From positions 1-29,531 of IMG/VR virus record IMGVR_UViG_648276670_000001: a DNA stretch of 29,531 nucleotides. One strand, written 5' to 3'. A program made the translations under genes and the position numbers. Origin of the DNA: a virus. Taxonomy: Duplodnaviria; Heunggongvirae; Uroviricota; Caudoviricetes. This document shows positions 3,486-7,846 of the stretch, one piece after another (the stretch's first letter is position 1; every line of letters starts with the position of its first letter). The notes under the pieces were generated by a model that was given only the letters and a program-made list of their open reading frames with translations, did not search any database and was not told where the DNA came from.

Positions 3486-3712
3486 GACGCCTCCTTAAGG
3501 ATACCGGGGGTAACTTCTTTACCTATTGCAACCGATAGATCTCGCAAAATCCGATAAGTCAAACGACCGCGAGGTAGTTCACTTTTACCAGCCCAGCGAC
3601 TGACTGCCTGGGTGACTGTTCGTGGTTCATAGCCCGCGTTAAGCGCGAACTGGCGCAAGCTACTGCCTCGTTCAACCAGCCGTGCCCGAACTTGTTGTTT
3701 GTTCATATGCAC
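3482..3712 (-). CDS. ner: Ner-like small DNA-binding protein (Mu Ner/Nlp family), about 75 aa
   Basis: Size, position as first gene of the early operon divergent from the repressor, and HTH segment SLRQFALNAGYEPRTVTQAVSRW resembling Ner; start may be GTG 3710-3712 or ATG 3704-3706. Confidence 0.6.
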   Translation of the reverse strand: MHMNKQQVRARLVERGSSLRQFALNAGYEPRTVTQAVSRWAGKSELPRGRLTYRILRDLSVAIGKEVTPGILKEAS

Positions 3713-3794
3713 CGTGTTCCTGTTAGGTTATGATGTACTCTATTGGGTCTATTGTACACACCCAAATGAGTGTGTCAAATTGAGATATGTTCAA
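3713..3794. promoter_or_regulatory. Divergent early/repressor promoter-operator region
   Basis: AT-rich intergenic region between divergent ner-like and repressor genes; direct repeats TCTATTG at 3739-3745 and 3748-3754 flanked by TGTAC/GTACA, and ACACAC...GTGTGT inverted elements at 3756-3776. Confidence 0.4.
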
Positions 3795-4202
3795 ATGAGT
3801 ACAAAAGAGAGATTGCGTGAAGTGATGGATGCTAATGGCATGACAATAAAGGCATTATCTGACTTATCAAAAATTCCATATCGCTCACTTCAAAACTATT
3901 TGCGTGGAGAGAGAGAACCAAACGCAGAGGCTCTTGTTGCGCTAAGTGCCCATTTGGGTGTATCGATCGATTGGCTACTTACCGGTAAAGAACATATTCC
4001 ATCTAAAGAAATTGTTGCTGTACCAACACAACATCAATTCAGCCCGTCAGACCTTAAAATGCTTGAACTTCTAAACCAGTTAGATCCTGAGGTTCGGCGA
4101 GATCTCATGCGAGGCGCTGAAGAAAAACAGCGTGTGATTGAGATGGAAAAACAACTGAAGGAATTATCCGCAACGATTGAGCGGTTAAAAAATGTGGGTT
4201 AA
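3795..4202 (+). CDS. Prophage repressor-like XRE-family HTH protein, about 135 aa
   Basis: HTH motif TIKALSDLSKIPYRSLQNYLRGEREPNAEALVALSAHLGVSIDWLL plus C-terminal coiled coil; divergent from the early operon. The ORF-track start at TTG 3699 adds a hydrophobic extension that overlaps the operator region and is probably spurious. Confidence 0.7.
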   Translation: MSTKERLREVMDANGMTIKALSDLSKIPYRSLQNYLRGEREPNAEALVALSAHLGVSIDWLLTGKEHIPSKEIVAVPTQHQFSPSDLKMLELLNQLDPEVRRDLMRGAEEKQRVIEMEKQLKELSATIERLKNVG

Positions 4203-4272
4203 TGTGTTCCTAACGAGAACATATAGCAGAAATTATTTGCCATTAAGCAATAAAAAATAAGGTGGATAGCCA

Positions 4273-5280
4273 ATGTCTGAGCAGACCATTGAAGTTAAAC
4301 ACGTTGTAGTTCACATTTTAGACAAACAACAAAATGGAGACGCTTCTGAGAGATTGAGTCCTGAAGAAGGTCTAGTTACTGAAGCCTCTCAGCGCCTTAT
4401 AAACGATATTTGTGCAAAATATGCAGGACGCACAGGTAAAGGTTATGGCTATTTTGAAGGCGATACGGATAACTATCCTATGGAACGAATGGCTGGGGAC
4501 TTTCTCGAAGGTGTTGATGATTTCTACCAAAGTTCCTGCCGAATGATGCATCACCTGACGGAACGTTCTCAGCGAGAAAACATGGCTACTGGTGGTTATG
4601 TTCTTTTTGCAAATATCGTGATAGGACACAATGAACACCTGTTGATAGCTATTGTAAGCGCTACCATTGGGTCCACTGTCACAGATGATTTTAACATCCA
4701 AGATAGTACCTATCTTGATATTGCTAAGCTGCGTATGGCTGGGCGCATTGACTTAACCGCGTGGGAAAGTGGCGCAGAGCGCTATATCAGTTTTCTTAAG
4801 GGGCAAGGTAATGTTTCAAACTATTTTAAACAGTTCCTAGGCTGTAATGATGTCTTAATCGCCAAACGAGAGTCTGAAAAGTTACGTGACGTTTTAAAAG
4901 CATTTGCGGCAGAGAAAGGACTTGACGGCGCTGAAAAAGATGCATTTCTTAAGAGTGCGTTTGAACACTTACATGCACTAAGTAAGGCTGGTGAACCACT
5001 TAGTCTTGAAACCCTTGTTAATGCCATTTGGCCCCAGGCTCCCGAGGAGTTATCTGGTAAACTTGCTGCTGAAGAGTTGGAGTTATCGGATGGCTTCGTT
5101 CCTGATGGTCGAGTCATTCGGGCTCTGGTATCTTTTAAAGGCAAGTCTAAATATTGGGAACTTAAGTTTGACCGGGAAGGGAAAACTGAAGGCTATATTG
5201 ATTATGATCCGGAAACAAATATTATCACCCTACGTAATGTACCTGAAGAATTTAGGGAAATGTGGATGACTGAGGTTTAA
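4273..5280 (+). CDS. NdpA/YejK-family nucleoid-associated protein homolog, 335 aa
   Basis: AAGGTGGA Shine-Dalgarno 8 nt upstream; full-length resemblance to the YejK/NdpA family (GGYVLFANIV, TYLDIAKLRMAGRIDLTAWESGAERYISFLKGQG, C-terminal NIITLRNVPEEFRE); AT-rich codon usage unlike the flanking phage genes. Confidence 0.85.
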   Translation: MSEQTIEVKHVVVHILDKQQNGDASERLSPEEGLVTEASQRLINDICAKYAGRTGKGYGYFEGDTDNYPMERMAGDFLEGVDDFYQSSCRMMHHLTERSQRENMATGGYVLFANIVIGHNEHLLIAIVSATIGSTVTDDFNIQDSTYLDIAKLRMAGRIDLTAWESGAERYISFLKGQGNVSNYFKQFLGCNDVLIAKRESEKLRDVLKAFAAEKGLDGAEKDAFLKSAFEHLHALSKAGEPLSLETLVNAIWPQAPEELSGKLAAEELELSDGFVPDGRVIRALVSFKGKSKYWELKFDREGKTEGYIDYDPETNIITLRNVPEEFREMWMTEV

Positions 5281-5282
5281 TC

Positions 5283-6488
5283 GTGGCGATTTCATTTGAG
5301 ATGCTGACAGCTCTGTATCGTCGTATGGAATTCCAAGAGGGGTTTCGTGTCGGTTCGCTGTTGCTCTTAGATCAGTCCGATTGTGATCTGGTTGATACTT
5401 TGCTTGATGATCCTCGTGAATATGGTCTTTCTATTGATACAGGCACTATCGCTCCAGGTAACACGATCATCCTACGTGTGACGTCACCACGGAGTGGACT
5501 GGGACTTGTGTTTTCCACCCATGAAAAATTGCTAAATGCTCCAAAGCATCAGTGCCTTGAGCCAGCTAATTACTTCATCCTAGAAACAAAATTTCGTAAT
5601 GATGATGAAGATATCCCCGTTTTCATCAGCAACTACCGGAAGATTCTCGAGTTCGTTAACCTGCTAAAAGAGGCCGCGGCCTACTTTGATAACTCAACTT
5701 GTCAGTTAGTTTTTCTGAAAAAAGAAGTTATCAAGCTATTACCGCACTTCGCTGCAGAAAATGTACAAAATTTGCAAAGGGAGTATCTTGATAACCTTAT
5801 AGCTTGTTTCAATGATGATACCCATAAGGATCAGAAGCTAGATATTCTGATTGAAAGTATTCAAGCAGTTAGTGATGGAATTGATTCACCTCTAGTATTC
5901 GCTTATTTACTGGACAATATTCAGCGTCTGCATGAAAAGTTTCTGAAAGGGTATCGTATCTACTCTTCTGGATTCTCTTATGACAAAGTAATGGATCAAC
6001 TGCGTGCTGCAAAAGTCGAAGAAATGGGTAAAATCCACAAAGCGTTTTCAGATATCCAGAACCATATACTTGGCATTCCTGTTGCCTCTGTTATCGTAGC
6101 TACCCAATTCAAAGTGGCTACGAAATGGTCAGGCCAAGGGATAACAAACACAATAATTCTTCTGGGATGCATTTTTGCTGCAACGTTAATCTGGCTGGCA
6201 CTTTCGAACCAGATGCAATCTATAAAGGCCTTAGGCGAAGAAATTGAATACAAAGAAAAACAGATTAATAAGGAATATTCCTTCATTAAAGATGACGTGG
6301 CTGGTGTATTTAGCAGTATTTCTGCGCGACTAGACACGCAGAAACGTACGTTCTGGATTATACGTGGTGTTCTAGTTATGGGAATTATTACCGCTATCAC
6401 TGTTTATTTTTGGTACACAAAACCAGCCCTTGACTTCATGCAGTACTTGATTCACTGCATGAAGTCTTACTATTCGGTCAAAAGTTGA
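5283..6488 (+). CDS. Unknown 401-aa protein with two C-terminal transmembrane helices
   Basis: GTG start 2 nt after the NdpA-like stop with GAGG 7 nt upstream (translational coupling); hydrophobic helices ITNTIILLGCIFAATLIWLAL and FWIIRGVLVMGIITAITVYFWY; AT-rich; no catalytic motif recognised. Confidence 0.7.
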   Translation: MAISFEMLTALYRRMEFQEGFRVGSLLLLDQSDCDLVDTLLDDPREYGLSIDTGTIAPGNTIILRVTSPRSGLGLVFSTHEKLLNAPKHQCLEPANYFILETKFRNDDEDIPVFISNYRKILEFVNLLKEAAAYFDNSTCQLVFLKKEVIKLLPHFAAENVQNLQREYLDNLIACFNDDTHKDQKLDILIESIQAVSDGIDSPLVFAYLLDNIQRLHEKFLKGYRIYSSGFSYDKVMDQLRAAKVEEMGKIHKAFSDIQNHILGIPVASVIVATQFKVATKWSGQGITNTIILLGCIFAATLIWLALSNQMQSIKALGEEIEYKEKQINKEYSFIKDDVAGVFSSISARLDTQKRTFWIIRGVLVMGIITAITVYFWYTKPALDFMQYLIHCMKSYYSVKS

Positions 6489-7248
6489 GGATAATGAGTT
6501 CCTTCTTGCGACTGGATTTGCCAGTGATCTTGAGGTTGTAGCTGATATCAACCGACTGAATATTTAGACCGTTGAATGCCTGCCGCATTTCCGGGATATC
6601 GTTCACCGATATAATCATCTTCCCTTTGATCCTGCGTGCTAAATCTGCCATATGATCATAATTTTCTAGTCCGAACTCCACACCATAACCTTCCGTTCCC
6701 CAGTATGGAGGGTCACAGTAGAACAACGTATGCGGGCGATCATATCGTTCTATGCACTGTTGCCAGTCCATGTGTTCTATGACCGTTCTGGAAAGCCGCA
6801 GGTGTGCCGCTGACAGTTCTTCTTCAATACGCAGCAGGTTGAAGCGTGGCGGGGATATGGTGGAGGTACCAAAGCTGTGCTCCGCCACCTTGCCCCCAAA
6901 CGCCTGCTTCTGAAGGTAGTAGAACCGTGCTGCACGCTGGATATCCGTCAGTGTTTCTTCCGGGGTGATCTGCAGCCATTTGTAGATCTGCCGGCTGACC
7001 AGCGCCCATTTGAACTGGCGTACAAATTCTTCCAGATGATGTTTTACCACCCGATACAGGTTCACCAGCTCACCGTTGATATCATTAATGACTTCGATCT
7101 TGCCGGGTACCTTAAGAAAATAGAGCGCTGCTGCCCCACAAAACGGCTCCACATAACATTCATGCGCCGGAAACAGCGGCAGGATGTGTTTTGCAAGGCG
7201 GCGTTTGCCACCAATCCATGGAACGATGGGTAATGTCTGCATTTTCAT
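6478..7248 (-). CDS. dam: Dam-like N6-adenine DNA methyltransferase, 256 aa
   Basis: Motif I-like PFCGAAALYF and catalytic DPPY (YCDPPYWGTEGY) in the order typical of Dam-type enzymes; convergent with the upstream gene, 3' ends overlapping by 11 bp. Confidence 0.9.
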   Translation of the reverse strand: MKMQTLPIVPWIGGKRRLAKHILPLFPAHECYVEPFCGAAALYFLKVPGKIEVINDINGELVNLYRVVKHHLEEFVRQFKWALVSRQIYKWLQITPEETLTDIQRAARFYYLQKQAFGGKVAEHSFGTSTISPPRFNLLRIEEELSAAHLRLSRTVIEHMDWQQCIERYDRPHTLFYCDPPYWGTEGYGVEFGLENYDHMADLARRIKGKMIISVNDIPEMRQAFNGLNIQSVDISYNLKITGKSSRKKELIILNF

Positions 7249-7495
7249 AATCTGTAAGCCTTTTACAATTATAAAAAATATGGCAGGCTAGTCTGGTCTC
7301 GCGAGACTGACTGAACCTTGGTCGGCTCACAGCGCATTCCTGTGGGGCGATGGCCAGCCCGGTGTTCGGGTACCGGGCTGGTCGTTCTTTCAAAGCCATC
7401 ATGCAGTGCACGTTTACATCTTCACTATTAACGCTGTTTAAAATCCGTATCCCGCCACATTTGTGATGCTGTCTCCACCAAACGAGGAGACACAC
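7249..7495. promoter_or_regulatory. Divergent intergenic region between the methyltransferase and lysis genes, containing a perfect 12-bp palindrome
   Basis: GTCTCGCGAGAC at 7296-7307; a minus-strand TATAAT (plus 7268-7273) about 20 nt upstream of the methyltransferase ATG with a poor -35; GAGGAG Shine-Dalgarno at 7484-7489 for the downstream gene. Confidence 0.35.
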
Positions 7496-7846
7496 ATGAA
7501 AAACCTGAAAAAATTCATTCCCCCTGTTAAAAAACCTCGCCTCAGCGGCTGGCTGCTGACCTCAGTGCTGTTGCTGGGCATCATCGCTCTGGTCTCGCCA
7601 CAGCAGTTGCCTGTTGTGATCTACAAGCTGGCACTCATCACGCTGGCAGCAGTGCTGGGTTACTGGCTTGACCGTTCGCTCTTCCCCAAAGCCCGTCCCG
7701 GTCAGTACCTGAAACATGACAACAGACTGATGGCTGAAGGGCGTTTCCCTGTGCAGACCGGCCTTCACCTTGTATTTTCTGCTGCGTTAATCCGCCGTGC
7801 ACTGATTGTTGCAGCGGTCTGTCTGGCTGTGGCAACAGGACTGTGA
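7496..7846 (+). CDS. Small membrane protein, candidate holin, about 116 aa
   Basis: GAGGAG Shine-Dalgarno 6 nt upstream of ATG 7496; three hydrophobic segments; immediately precedes the endolysin gene with overlapping stop and start. Confidence 0.5.
   Translation: MKNLKKFIPPVKKPRLSGWLLTSVLLLGIIALVSPQQLPVVIYKLALITLAAVLGYWLDRSLFPKARPGQYLKHDNRLMAEGRFPVQTGLHLVFSAALIRRALIVAAVCLAVATGL

Follow-up and report, generated by a model that had tools for sequence, protein, structure and literature searches.

Orphan methylases of phages reshape host epigenomes and help phages to evade restriction. To our knowledge, little is known about the control of such enzymes apart from the mom system of phage Mu, which involves the promoter Pmom (momP1), a divergent promoter momP2, the activator C and the translational activator Com. 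Another type of phage regulation is provided by cis-antisense RNAs, such as OOP of lambda (directed against cII) and sar of P22 (directed against ant), whose modes of action are duplex formation with RNase III, transcriptional interference or both. Here we analyse a stretch of 29,531 nucleotides (nt), record IMGVR_UViG_648276670_000001 of the IMG/VR database (hereafter the window), and in particular the region upstream of its Dam-like methylase gene, where a perfect palindrome of 12 base pairs (bp) had been considered as a possible activator site in an earlier note on this DNA. We propose instead that the palindrome is the first hairpin of a small structured RNA gene, which lies back-to-back with the methylase gene and would regulate this modification gene in cis. 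We assign this reading a probability of roughly 0.6.

Conservation and folding of the intergenic element

The window is a transposable prophage of Escherichia coli, BcepMu-like (Bcepmuvirus). Its nearest deposited phages are Klebsiella phage KP12, Escherichia phage PhiKM and Phi06_2974 B, and a 1.3-kb query (6300-7600) is 100% identical to E. coli M-17 (NZ_CP068394). An alignment of the region with three related phages shows a stretch of 145 bp (7249-7392), from the methylase ATG to ~7392, to be nearly invariant, at an identity of only 85-90% for the methylase genes. Directly after ...GGTCGTTCTTT (~7392), unrelated insertions follow in KP12 and PhiKM, therefore any conserved methylase promoter has to lie within 7249-7392. 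In the same two phages, a holin-proximal conserved block is separated from the element. About 600 genomes of E. coli contain methylase and 145-bp block as one unit with the same borders (query 238-1093); the methylase/element region has a match in 636 of 5,426 complete genomes of this species, about a tenth.

The plus strand of the block has a predicted folding energy of -59.1 kcal/mol (z = -5.1 relative to shuffled controls). To describe the structure, 80 genomic loci were gathered via the methylase protein. Using blastn, the block was recognised in ~21 Enterobacterales prophages (66-90% identity), each time upstream of the gene; all of these prophages are BcepMu-like, and methylase and holin-SLT diverge in them. 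Four helices, SL1, P0, SL2 and SL3 (Table 1), are supported by a MAFFT alignment of 23 copies that was built without structural input. Pairing partners are complementary in 93.9% of cells, compared with 31-48% for slid partners; 17 pairs are changed on both sides and none of 500 shuffles reaches the observed values. A wider set comprises 65 distinct sequences, whose alignment was fitted to a covariance model and thus leans towards the structure. In this set 91.2% of cells are paired (33-55% for slid partners), compensatory changes occur in 33 of 37 pairs and all five measures lie above every shuffle.

The individual helices are supported to different degrees. P0, which closes the domain of SL2 and SL3, is 99.6% paired in the 65 sequences with three of its four pairs covarying, and its position 67:141 is G-C in 13 and A-U in 10 copies of the 23-copy alignment. 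SL3 contains a perfect 10-nt inverted repeat (7354-7363/7372-7381). Counts of G.U versus A.C cells are 196:5 for SL2, 96:21 for SL3, 8:0 for P0 and 37:20 for the SL1 apex, and SL2 is paired in 96.7% on the plus strand versus 69.8% on the minus strand. These wobbles show that SL2, SL3 and P0 fold on the plus strand.

Several other interpretations of the block were tried and rejected. A 5' untranslated structure or riboswitch of the methylase on the minus strand is contradicted by the wobble statistics of SL2 given above. Pairing of AGGCU with AGCCU was discarded as the basal helix, since position 67 covaries with 141 and not with 33. No conserved open reading frame (ORF) was found in the element, either in the window or in its relatives: a 22-amino-acid (aa) ORF at 7269-7337 of the minus strand is kept in the E. 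coli clade and stopped after six codons in Photorhabdus, and other short ORFs are broken by the insertions of KP12 and PhiKM. Pairing of the junction G(A/G)GCCUU with AAGGCUU of the methylase leader, which would mask the Shine-Dalgarno sequence, was likewise rejected, as the variable position covaries with P0 and not with the leader. By eye, complementarity of 5-7 nt between junction and leader is present in many loci and missing in com-type loci such as L060; such pairing is a weak idea.

Table 1. Positions of the element, of the methylase gene and of other features in the window
Feature	Position	Strand	Basis or remark
SL1, 12-bp perfect palindrome GTCTCGCGAGAC, predicted 5'-terminal hairpin	7296..7307	plus	G7296 is the predicted transcription start
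P0, 5' strand (GAAC), pairs with 7384-7387 and closes the SL2/SL3 domain	7313..7316	plus	covariation
Conserved junction CCUUGG	7316-7321	plus	directly after the P0 5' strand
SL2 hairpin, many G.U pairs	7321..7351	plus	covariation, G.U versus A.C
SL3, GC-rich hairpin, conserved loop GUGUU...GCA	7352..7383	plus	12 of 12 pairs covary
P0, 3' strand (GUUC), then U-run (UUU), predicted intrinsic termination point	7384..7391	plus	conservation ends and insertions of relatives begin
Extended -10 element TGgCAGGCT (consensus TGnTAnnnT) of the putative divergent RNA	7281..7289	plus	conservation in 60 variants
TATTTT, better-conserved candidate methylase -10	7275..7280	minus	back-to-back with the RNA -10, 3 bp apart; inferred
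TATAAT of the earlier note	7268..7273	minus	present, not conserved
Shine-Dalgarno-like AAGGC in the methylase leader AAAAGGCUUACAG-N-AUG	7258..7262	minus	kept in gamma- and betaproteobacterial relatives; read from sequence
Orphan D12/Dam-family N6-adenine DNA methyltransferase, 256 aa	6478..7248	minus	Pfam, NCBIfam, PADLOC and PDB matches
rve-type transposase, one of the minus-strand early genes	482-2251	minus	
HTH_3/CI-like repressor	3699-4202	plus	
Cargo gene 1, NA37 family (NA37/YejK-like)	4273-5280	plus	
Cargo gene 2, 401 aa	5283-6488	plus	no Pfam match
Holin, SLT transglycosylase, morphogenesis genes	from ~7496	plus	

Promoter and 3' end signatures

To look for a promoter, 60 distinct variants were anchored on the hexamer just 5' of SL1. 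The hexamer starts with T (80%) and A (100%), followed by three variable positions and a T (100%). G is found two nt upstream of it in 93% and T three nt upstream in 55% of the variants, and no conserved -35 was detected among them. TGnTAnnnT is the signature of an extended -10 promoter of sigma-70. Additionally, a plus-strand AAAAT tract is present at fixed distance in ~60% of these variants, and on it rests the candidate methylase -10 TATTTT (Table 1).

In the window, the extended -10 ends 6 nt before the palindrome. More generally, the ungapped palindromic helix begins 5-8 nt past the hexamer in 54 of 62 variants, most often at +7. The helix thus begins where a transcription start would be expected, and G7296, with which the palindrome opens, is therefore the predicted start in the window. 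The base at the beginning of the helix is G in 28, C in 19, T in 13 and A in two of the 62 variants. At the opposite end, P0 is directly followed by a U-run, which consists of 6-8 clean U in many betaproteobacterial variants. Promoter and terminator are predicted from these sequence signatures, and the predicted product is a plus-strand RNA of ~95 nt (about 7296-7391). Since the RNA -10 is only 3 bp away from the candidate methylase -10, binding of RNA polymerase to the two would be mutually exclusive.

Some further observations concern the borders of the element. An AT-rich inverted repeat, TTTTCA-N5-TGAAAA (window 7261-7280 and equivalents), is situated between the methylase Shine-Dalgarno sequence and the RNA -10; its inner positions seem to covary (CA:TG, CG:CG, C:G). 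In Pantoea stewartii (L005, 2959-2999) the element is severed exactly after the -10 hexamer (…GGCAGGCT) and continues with unrelated DNA. The site right after the RNA U-run (~7392) is an insertion hot spot (L001 6996-7562, L002 6903-8225, L210 2832-3407), with a DUF2441-type ORF inserted in KP12 and E. coli 8178 and two minus-strand ORFs in PhiKM.

Distribution of the element and its gene context

A covariance model was built from the 23-copy alignment. It places the element directly upstream of the methylase, and always divergent from it, in ~68 of the 80 loci, among them loci of Burkholderia, Paraburkholderia, Chromobacterium, Iodobacter, Nitrosomonas, Methylophilaceae, Undibacterium and a metagenome-assembled genome of Francisella. 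The characterised phages VP882, vB_HM795, B3 and KS5 have the element as well; in VP882 (NC_009016) the predicted RNA would extend on the minus strand from ~20,954 to ~20,860. The element is absent from Mu itself, where the best score of the model is 2.9 bits.

A motif-first pattern scan of IMG/VR, filtered with the covariance model, yielded 47 confirmed elements. A divergent D12 methylase is adjacent in 33 of them and a divergent N6_N4 methylase (PF01555) in two, while in 9-10 the first divergent gene codes for a Mu Com-type zinc-ribbon protein (PF10122), after which other cargo follows. The order of genes is element-com-dam in B3 and element-com-N4/N6 methylase in KS5. The com-methylase pair of KS5 has been described without mention of an RNA (PMC3091744). 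In seven loci (L093, L087, L121, L136, L143, L144 and L100), element and Com precede non-methylase cargo near holin-like membrane proteins; this cargo comprises lectin-like proteins of ~320 aa and a conserved protein of 106 aa, so the cassette is not limited to methylases. Its first gene starts ~20-35 nt from the hexamer in all cases, the whole cassette occurs in either orientation, and its constant part is the RNA element.

Orientation of the following gene is informative. In 45 of 64 loci the gene past the RNA 3' end lies on the methylase strand, and it often ends 0-16 nt from the element. The common layout is thus an upstream late gene, then the element on the opposite strand, then the modification gene with or without a preceding com. 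The layout of the window, with the RNA pointing at the holin, is a minority (19/64). Three consequences follow from the common layout. As the next gene is convergent, the end with hairpin and U-run is not a terminator of a neighbour and implies a local promoter. There is no co-oriented downstream gene that the element might regulate as a leader. Finally, read-through mRNA of the modification gene contains the complement of the RNA. The same count of loci led us to reject a role as leader, with antitermination of put or Q type, for the holin operon further downstream; the separation of the holin-proximal block from the element in KP12 and PhiKM also speaks against it.

No Rfam 15 family reached its gathering score with the window copy, whether the region (E up to 10) or the whole window was searched, and among 14 related loci only two Burkholderia variants gave matches, sub-threshold ones to ctRNA_pGA1. 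A description of the RNA element was not found in the searchable literature. Small "hypothetical proteins" overlapping the element on either strand, B3 ORF45/46 (L084 3272-3497) and VP882 ABM73400.1 (L085 3155-3487), may be mis-annotations.

The palindrome of SL1 is hypervariable

SL1 is peculiar in its apex. Centre-perfect palindromes of 6-18 nt are present in ~50 of 60 distinct SL1 variants, 28 of them with a length of at least 12 nt, although only ~1 in 16 hairpins with an arbitrary tetraloop would be expected to be centre-perfect; nothing comparable is seen in SL3 of the same variants. The centres themselves are diverse (TCGCGA, CTCGAG, ATCGAT, GTCGAC, GTGCAC, CGATCG, TGATCA, GGTACC, TGTACA, AGCGCT, TGGCCA, ACCGGT, GACGTC and TGCGCA). 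For example, the otherwise nearly identical Aquitalea loci L046 and L040 differ in all six central bases, GTGCAC versus AGCGCT. A sequence that is hypervariable yet always self-complementary points to maintenance of base pairing rather than of a site for a conserved protein.

The monomeric 5' hairpin is weak by prediction (-1 to -7.5 kcal/mol); the predicted gain in stability of a homoduplex over two hairpins is 16-20 kcal/mol. Possible reasons why the centre pairs are RNA dimerisation, pairing with the transcript of the other strand, a dyad in DNA at +1, or a template-switch bias. One may go further and speculate that the palindromic 5' end is a functional module, by which the RNA forms homodimers or pairs with the opposite-strand message or DNA, with a specificity "barcode" under diversification, and that the Y-shaped body is a protein-binding platform, so that cassettes for DNA modification (Dam-like and N4/N6 methylases, Com-controlled cargo) would have in this RNA a dedicated cofactor or regulator. 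We consider this extended scheme unlikely; if true, it would amount to a new class of RNA partner for DNA-modification enzymes.

Proposed mode of action

The conservation of the element, its structure and strand, its promoter- and terminator-like signatures and its genomic linkage are all observed features; from them we infer that the RNA is made, that it has the ends given above and that it regulates the neighbouring gene. Its most likely role would be that of an antisense or promoter-competing regulator of the modification gene. Transcription would be started by sigma-70 at G7296 from the extended -10. The transcript would fold into the 5' hairpin SL1 and a Y-shaped domain, in which P0 closes SL2 and SL3, and would end at the U-run after P0. 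Together with the DNA-modification gene, and in some cases com, the RNA gene would constitute a mobile cassette located at operon boundaries of many temperate phages. In the usual layout the RNA would be antisense to the leader or intercistronic region of the read-through mRNA of the modification gene. Being constitutively promoted, it could hold down or time expression of this gene by two routes: promoter occlusion or collision with overlapping or oncoming methylase transcription, similarly to momP2 versus momP1 in Mu, or formation of a duplex with the complementary leader and subsequent processing by RNase III, as known for lambda OOP or P22 sar.

A number of points weigh against this proposal. 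Start, 3' end and regulatory effect are predictions. CAGGCT, the hexamer of the E. coli clade, is a weak -10 owing to its C at -12, and interruptions of the U-run are seen in many variants, the window copy among them (UCGUUCUUUC). Basal pairs of SL1 (7290-7293 with 7309-7312) covary in gammaproteobacteria although this basal extension probably precedes the predicted start; in the 65-sequence set pairing there is only 70%. The SL1 apex displays little strand asymmetry in its wobbles, so action at the DNA level is possible, and in Photorhabdus copies the palindrome is lost and replaced with an 18-nt loop. In E. coli 8178 (L210 2500-2731) the methylase is deleted save for its first ~80 nt, and the element is intact (129 bits), with changes at two positions otherwise conserved in at least 90% of copies (CCUUGG to CCUCGG and GUGUU to GAGUU). 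Finally, an antisense overlap with methylase transcription is conjectural for the layout of the window.

Alternative explanations

Along the lines of the earlier note, one may think of a dimeric late activator that binds the palindrome and replaces the poor -35 of a minus-strand methylase promoter with TATAAT as its -10 (7273..7268), as C of Mu does at Pmom. Both sequence elements exist: ATTATA occupies 7268-7273 of the plus strand, 19 nt from the ATG at 7248, and the 12-bp palindrome is perfect. The geometry also fits, with the palindrome at about -35 to -47 of that TATAAT, and its Watson-Crick perfection, the same on both strands, together with the low strand bias of the apex suits a protein site. 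Com, a mom-type regulator, is found in relatives, and outer GTY...RAC bases are kept within gammaproteobacterial BcepMu-like prophages. The TATAAT is nevertheless confined to the window and PhiKM, KP12 and Phi06 having ACTGAT or ATTGAT. The 29.5 kb, mainly late genes, hold no second copy of the palindrome with up to two mismatches; it is therefore not a shared late-activator site like those of Mu C. At this stringency 1.05 matches are expected in the window by chance and one is seen; the palindrome by itself is not statistically remarkable and has significance only through its conservation in relatives. It is invariant in four phages or prophages whose methylase genes are only 85-90% identical, and a palindromic hairpin is kept at the same position in about 60 distinct variants, but the sequence is hypervariable, as the Aquitalea pair illustrates. 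Moreover, no conserved DNA-binding gene accompanies the element, and the strongly conserved promoter signature faces the other way, with the palindrome at its +1. We thus regard the activator as quite improbable. What survives of the original idea is a special, conserved regulatory region upstream of the methylase; the analogy to Mu mom holds as far as the Com-type gene of relatives (B3, KS5 and ~10 IMG/VR loci) and fails for the repeated site, the GATC cluster and the conserved TATAAT.

Among explanations that retain the RNA or its structure, a trans-acting phage small RNA (sRNA) of Hfq type, directed at host or other phage mRNAs and linked to the methylase by co-mobility in one moron, is rather unlikely. 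It would account for the own promoter signature and terminator-like end as well as for the RNA that stays without methylase in E. coli 8178 and accompanies non-methylase cargo elsewhere, and the unpaired junction CCUUGG and SL3 loop GUGUU could be seed regions. The molecule is, however, almost wholly base-paired with very short single strands, its U-tail is interrupted, and the strictly held distance to the start codon of the first cassette gene (~20-35 nt) suggests action in cis. In favour of an sRNA, VP882, which bears the element, is reported to encode the Hfq-binding sRNA VpdS (PMC12197685); VpdS is, however, listed there at ~50 nt, not ~95 nt. Mere punctuation, an intergenic insulator or terminator against plus-strand read-through (e.g. 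from the repressor and cargo genes at 3699-6488) into the lysis operon, agrees with the location of cassettes at operon boundaries and with the window, where the holin is separated from the plus-strand lysogenic genes by the element with its terminal hairpin and U-run. This appears very unlikely: 45 of 64 loci have nothing upstream on that strand and a convergent next gene, one hairpin suffices for a terminator while SL1, SL2, P0 and unpaired nucleotides are kept across beta- and gammaproteobacteria, and the conserved extended -10 is left without explanation. The conserved TGnTAnnnT and U-run, being transcription signals, also disagree with an element acting as single-stranded DNA, such as a site of cassette recombination or mobilisation (attC-like or a target of an HUH enzyme). 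Sharp cassette borders with the element ending exactly where homology ends, the cut right after the hexamer in P. stewartii and the occurrence of the cassette in either orientation would suit such a site, and DNA hairpins would tolerate the strand-specific wobbles as G.T pairs. As no integrase or HUH gene accompanies the element and four helices with a closing helix are typical of RNA, this explanation is extremely unlikely.

The methylase and the neighbouring genes

Identification of the divergent gene as a Dam-like methyltransferase was correct: its 256-aa product matches family profiles above their cut-offs and has the alpha-class order of motifs, motif I (EPFCGAAALYF) being residues 34-44 and CDPPYW residues 178-183. 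Scores are 98.4 bits (E 7e-28, cut-off 22) for Pfam PF02086 MethyltransfD12 and 116.9 bits, barely over the cut-off of 114.85, for NCBIfam TIGR00571 "dam"; the PADLOC type II methylase model MTase_II matches with E 4e-115, and, with regard to a true Dam of GATC specificity, the equivalog NF008152 gives 69 bits only (cut-off 441). PDB matches, DpnM (5e-17) and E. coli Dam (1e-14), point to a distant relation to solved GATC enzymes, and proteins of B3, VP882 and phiE125 are 64-66% identical. It was likewise right that the gene lies opposite to the late-gene strand with its 3' end in the cargo (the stop end overlaps the convergent 401-aa ORF by 11 nt) and that a restriction endonuclease partner is missing: no nuclease family was recognised by Pfam or PADLOC among the neighbours (NA37-like, 401-aa and holin), which change from relative to relative. 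By its sequence, the methylase is an ordinary phage orphan enzyme of the Dam family, with self-protection or epigenetic modification as the likely role.

GATC is rarer than expected in the window (85 sites versus 112 +/- 9), and none is present between 7100 and 7617. Methylase homologues of 67-70% identity are found without the RNA element in Yersinia pekkanenii (L050) and Ca. Pantoea bathycoeliae (L069). In ~100 nt upstream of them, 3-4 GATC sites are clustered in repeated CGATCGGTT/AACCGATC motifs. The clusters are a hint of control by methylation and of GATC as the target of this methylase family; for GATC specificity, the low number of sites in the window is a second hint.

A functional link between the methylase and the adjacent cargo, also suggested previously, was rejected, because the NA37-like and 401-aa genes occupy a variable slot and stand beside the methylase in only three of ~21 related prophages; outside the window the same pair was seen in Mixta tenebrionis (L004) and Brenneria (L020). 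The pair has sub-threshold NCBIfam matches to the anti-phage pair DS1_1/DS1_2 (63.7 and 75.9 bits, cut-offs 330 and 315), and the 401-aa protein a weak PADLOC match to KwaA. It is probably distant defence-system cargo. Where the 401-aa ORF and the methylase gene converge, a 13-bp perfect inverted repeat with a 9-nt loop (6432-6444/6454-6466) may be a terminator hairpin common to both. On the holin side, a second conserved block (~7420-7498) moves with the holin and not with the methylase. Within this block, TAAAAT (7439-7444) occurs without a good -35. TGTCTCC (7470-7476) and GGAGACA (7486-7492) form an inverted repeat by which the Shine-Dalgarno sequence of the holin gene would be sequestered; the probable start codon of this gene is ATG 7496 and not GTG 7463.

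Comparison with known systems

The methylase resembles other phage orphan enzymes of its family (annotated Dam of B3 and of VP882, gp27 of phiE125) and the enzymes E. coli Dam and DpnM in Pfam family, FxGxA...DPPY order, length of ~256 aa and lack of a cognate nuclease, its relation to E. coli Dam and DpnM being only distant (E 1e-14 to 5e-17). As to sRNAs, VpdS of vibriophage VP882 is reported to bind Hfq and to promote replication and is listed at ~50 nt (Sprenger et al. 2024, doi 10.1016/j.chom.2024.03.010, cited through PMC12197685 and PMC13250501). It shares with the predicted RNA that it is encoded by a phage carrying the element next to dam, and would differ from it in its listed length and, according to PMC12197685, in acting in trans.

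The closest Rfam family is RF00236 ctRNA_pGA1, a two-hairpin antisense RNA with a terminator. SL2, SL3 and tail of two Burkholderia variants span its full 79-position model, with 37.0 bits for vB_HM795 and 29.5 bits for B. aenigmatica (gathering score 45); neither the window copy (E up to 10) nor eight other variants gave a match. The plasmid RNA lacks SL1 and P0 and belongs to the context of rep control.

Likeness to Mu mom lies in control of a phage DNA-modification gene, in bidirectional transcription (here predicted) from overlapping promoters just upstream of the modification operon, and in the Com zinc-ribbon gene that precedes the modification gene in cassette relatives (B3, KS5, IMG/VR loci). 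Mu, on the other hand, is without the element, and the region studied here has no GATC/OxyR cluster and no repeated activator site, nor is there a com gene in the window. The divergent transcript is here predicted to be a conserved, covarying structured RNA. With OOP and sar the predicted RNA would share short length (~70-100 nt), a constitutive promoter, high degree of structure, an intrinsic terminator and location opposite to the controlled message. It has no sequence or model similarity to them, would overlap the distal leader or intercistronic region rather than the ribosome-binding site or 3' end, and is set apart by its predicted terminator domain of Y shape and by a 5' hairpin that is palindromic and hypervariable.

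The element would thus constitute a new family within a known kind, the antisense or divergent regulatory RNAs of phages and plasmids. It is widespread and without an Rfam family, and it is coupled to modification genes in transposable, P2-like, B3-like and telomere phages of beta- and gammaproteobacteria. As a candidate regulator with predicted promoter, start, structure and 3' end, it ties methylase cassettes to Com-type control; its unusual feature among the systems compared is a predicted transcript that opens with a perfectly self-complementary, fast-evolving sequence.

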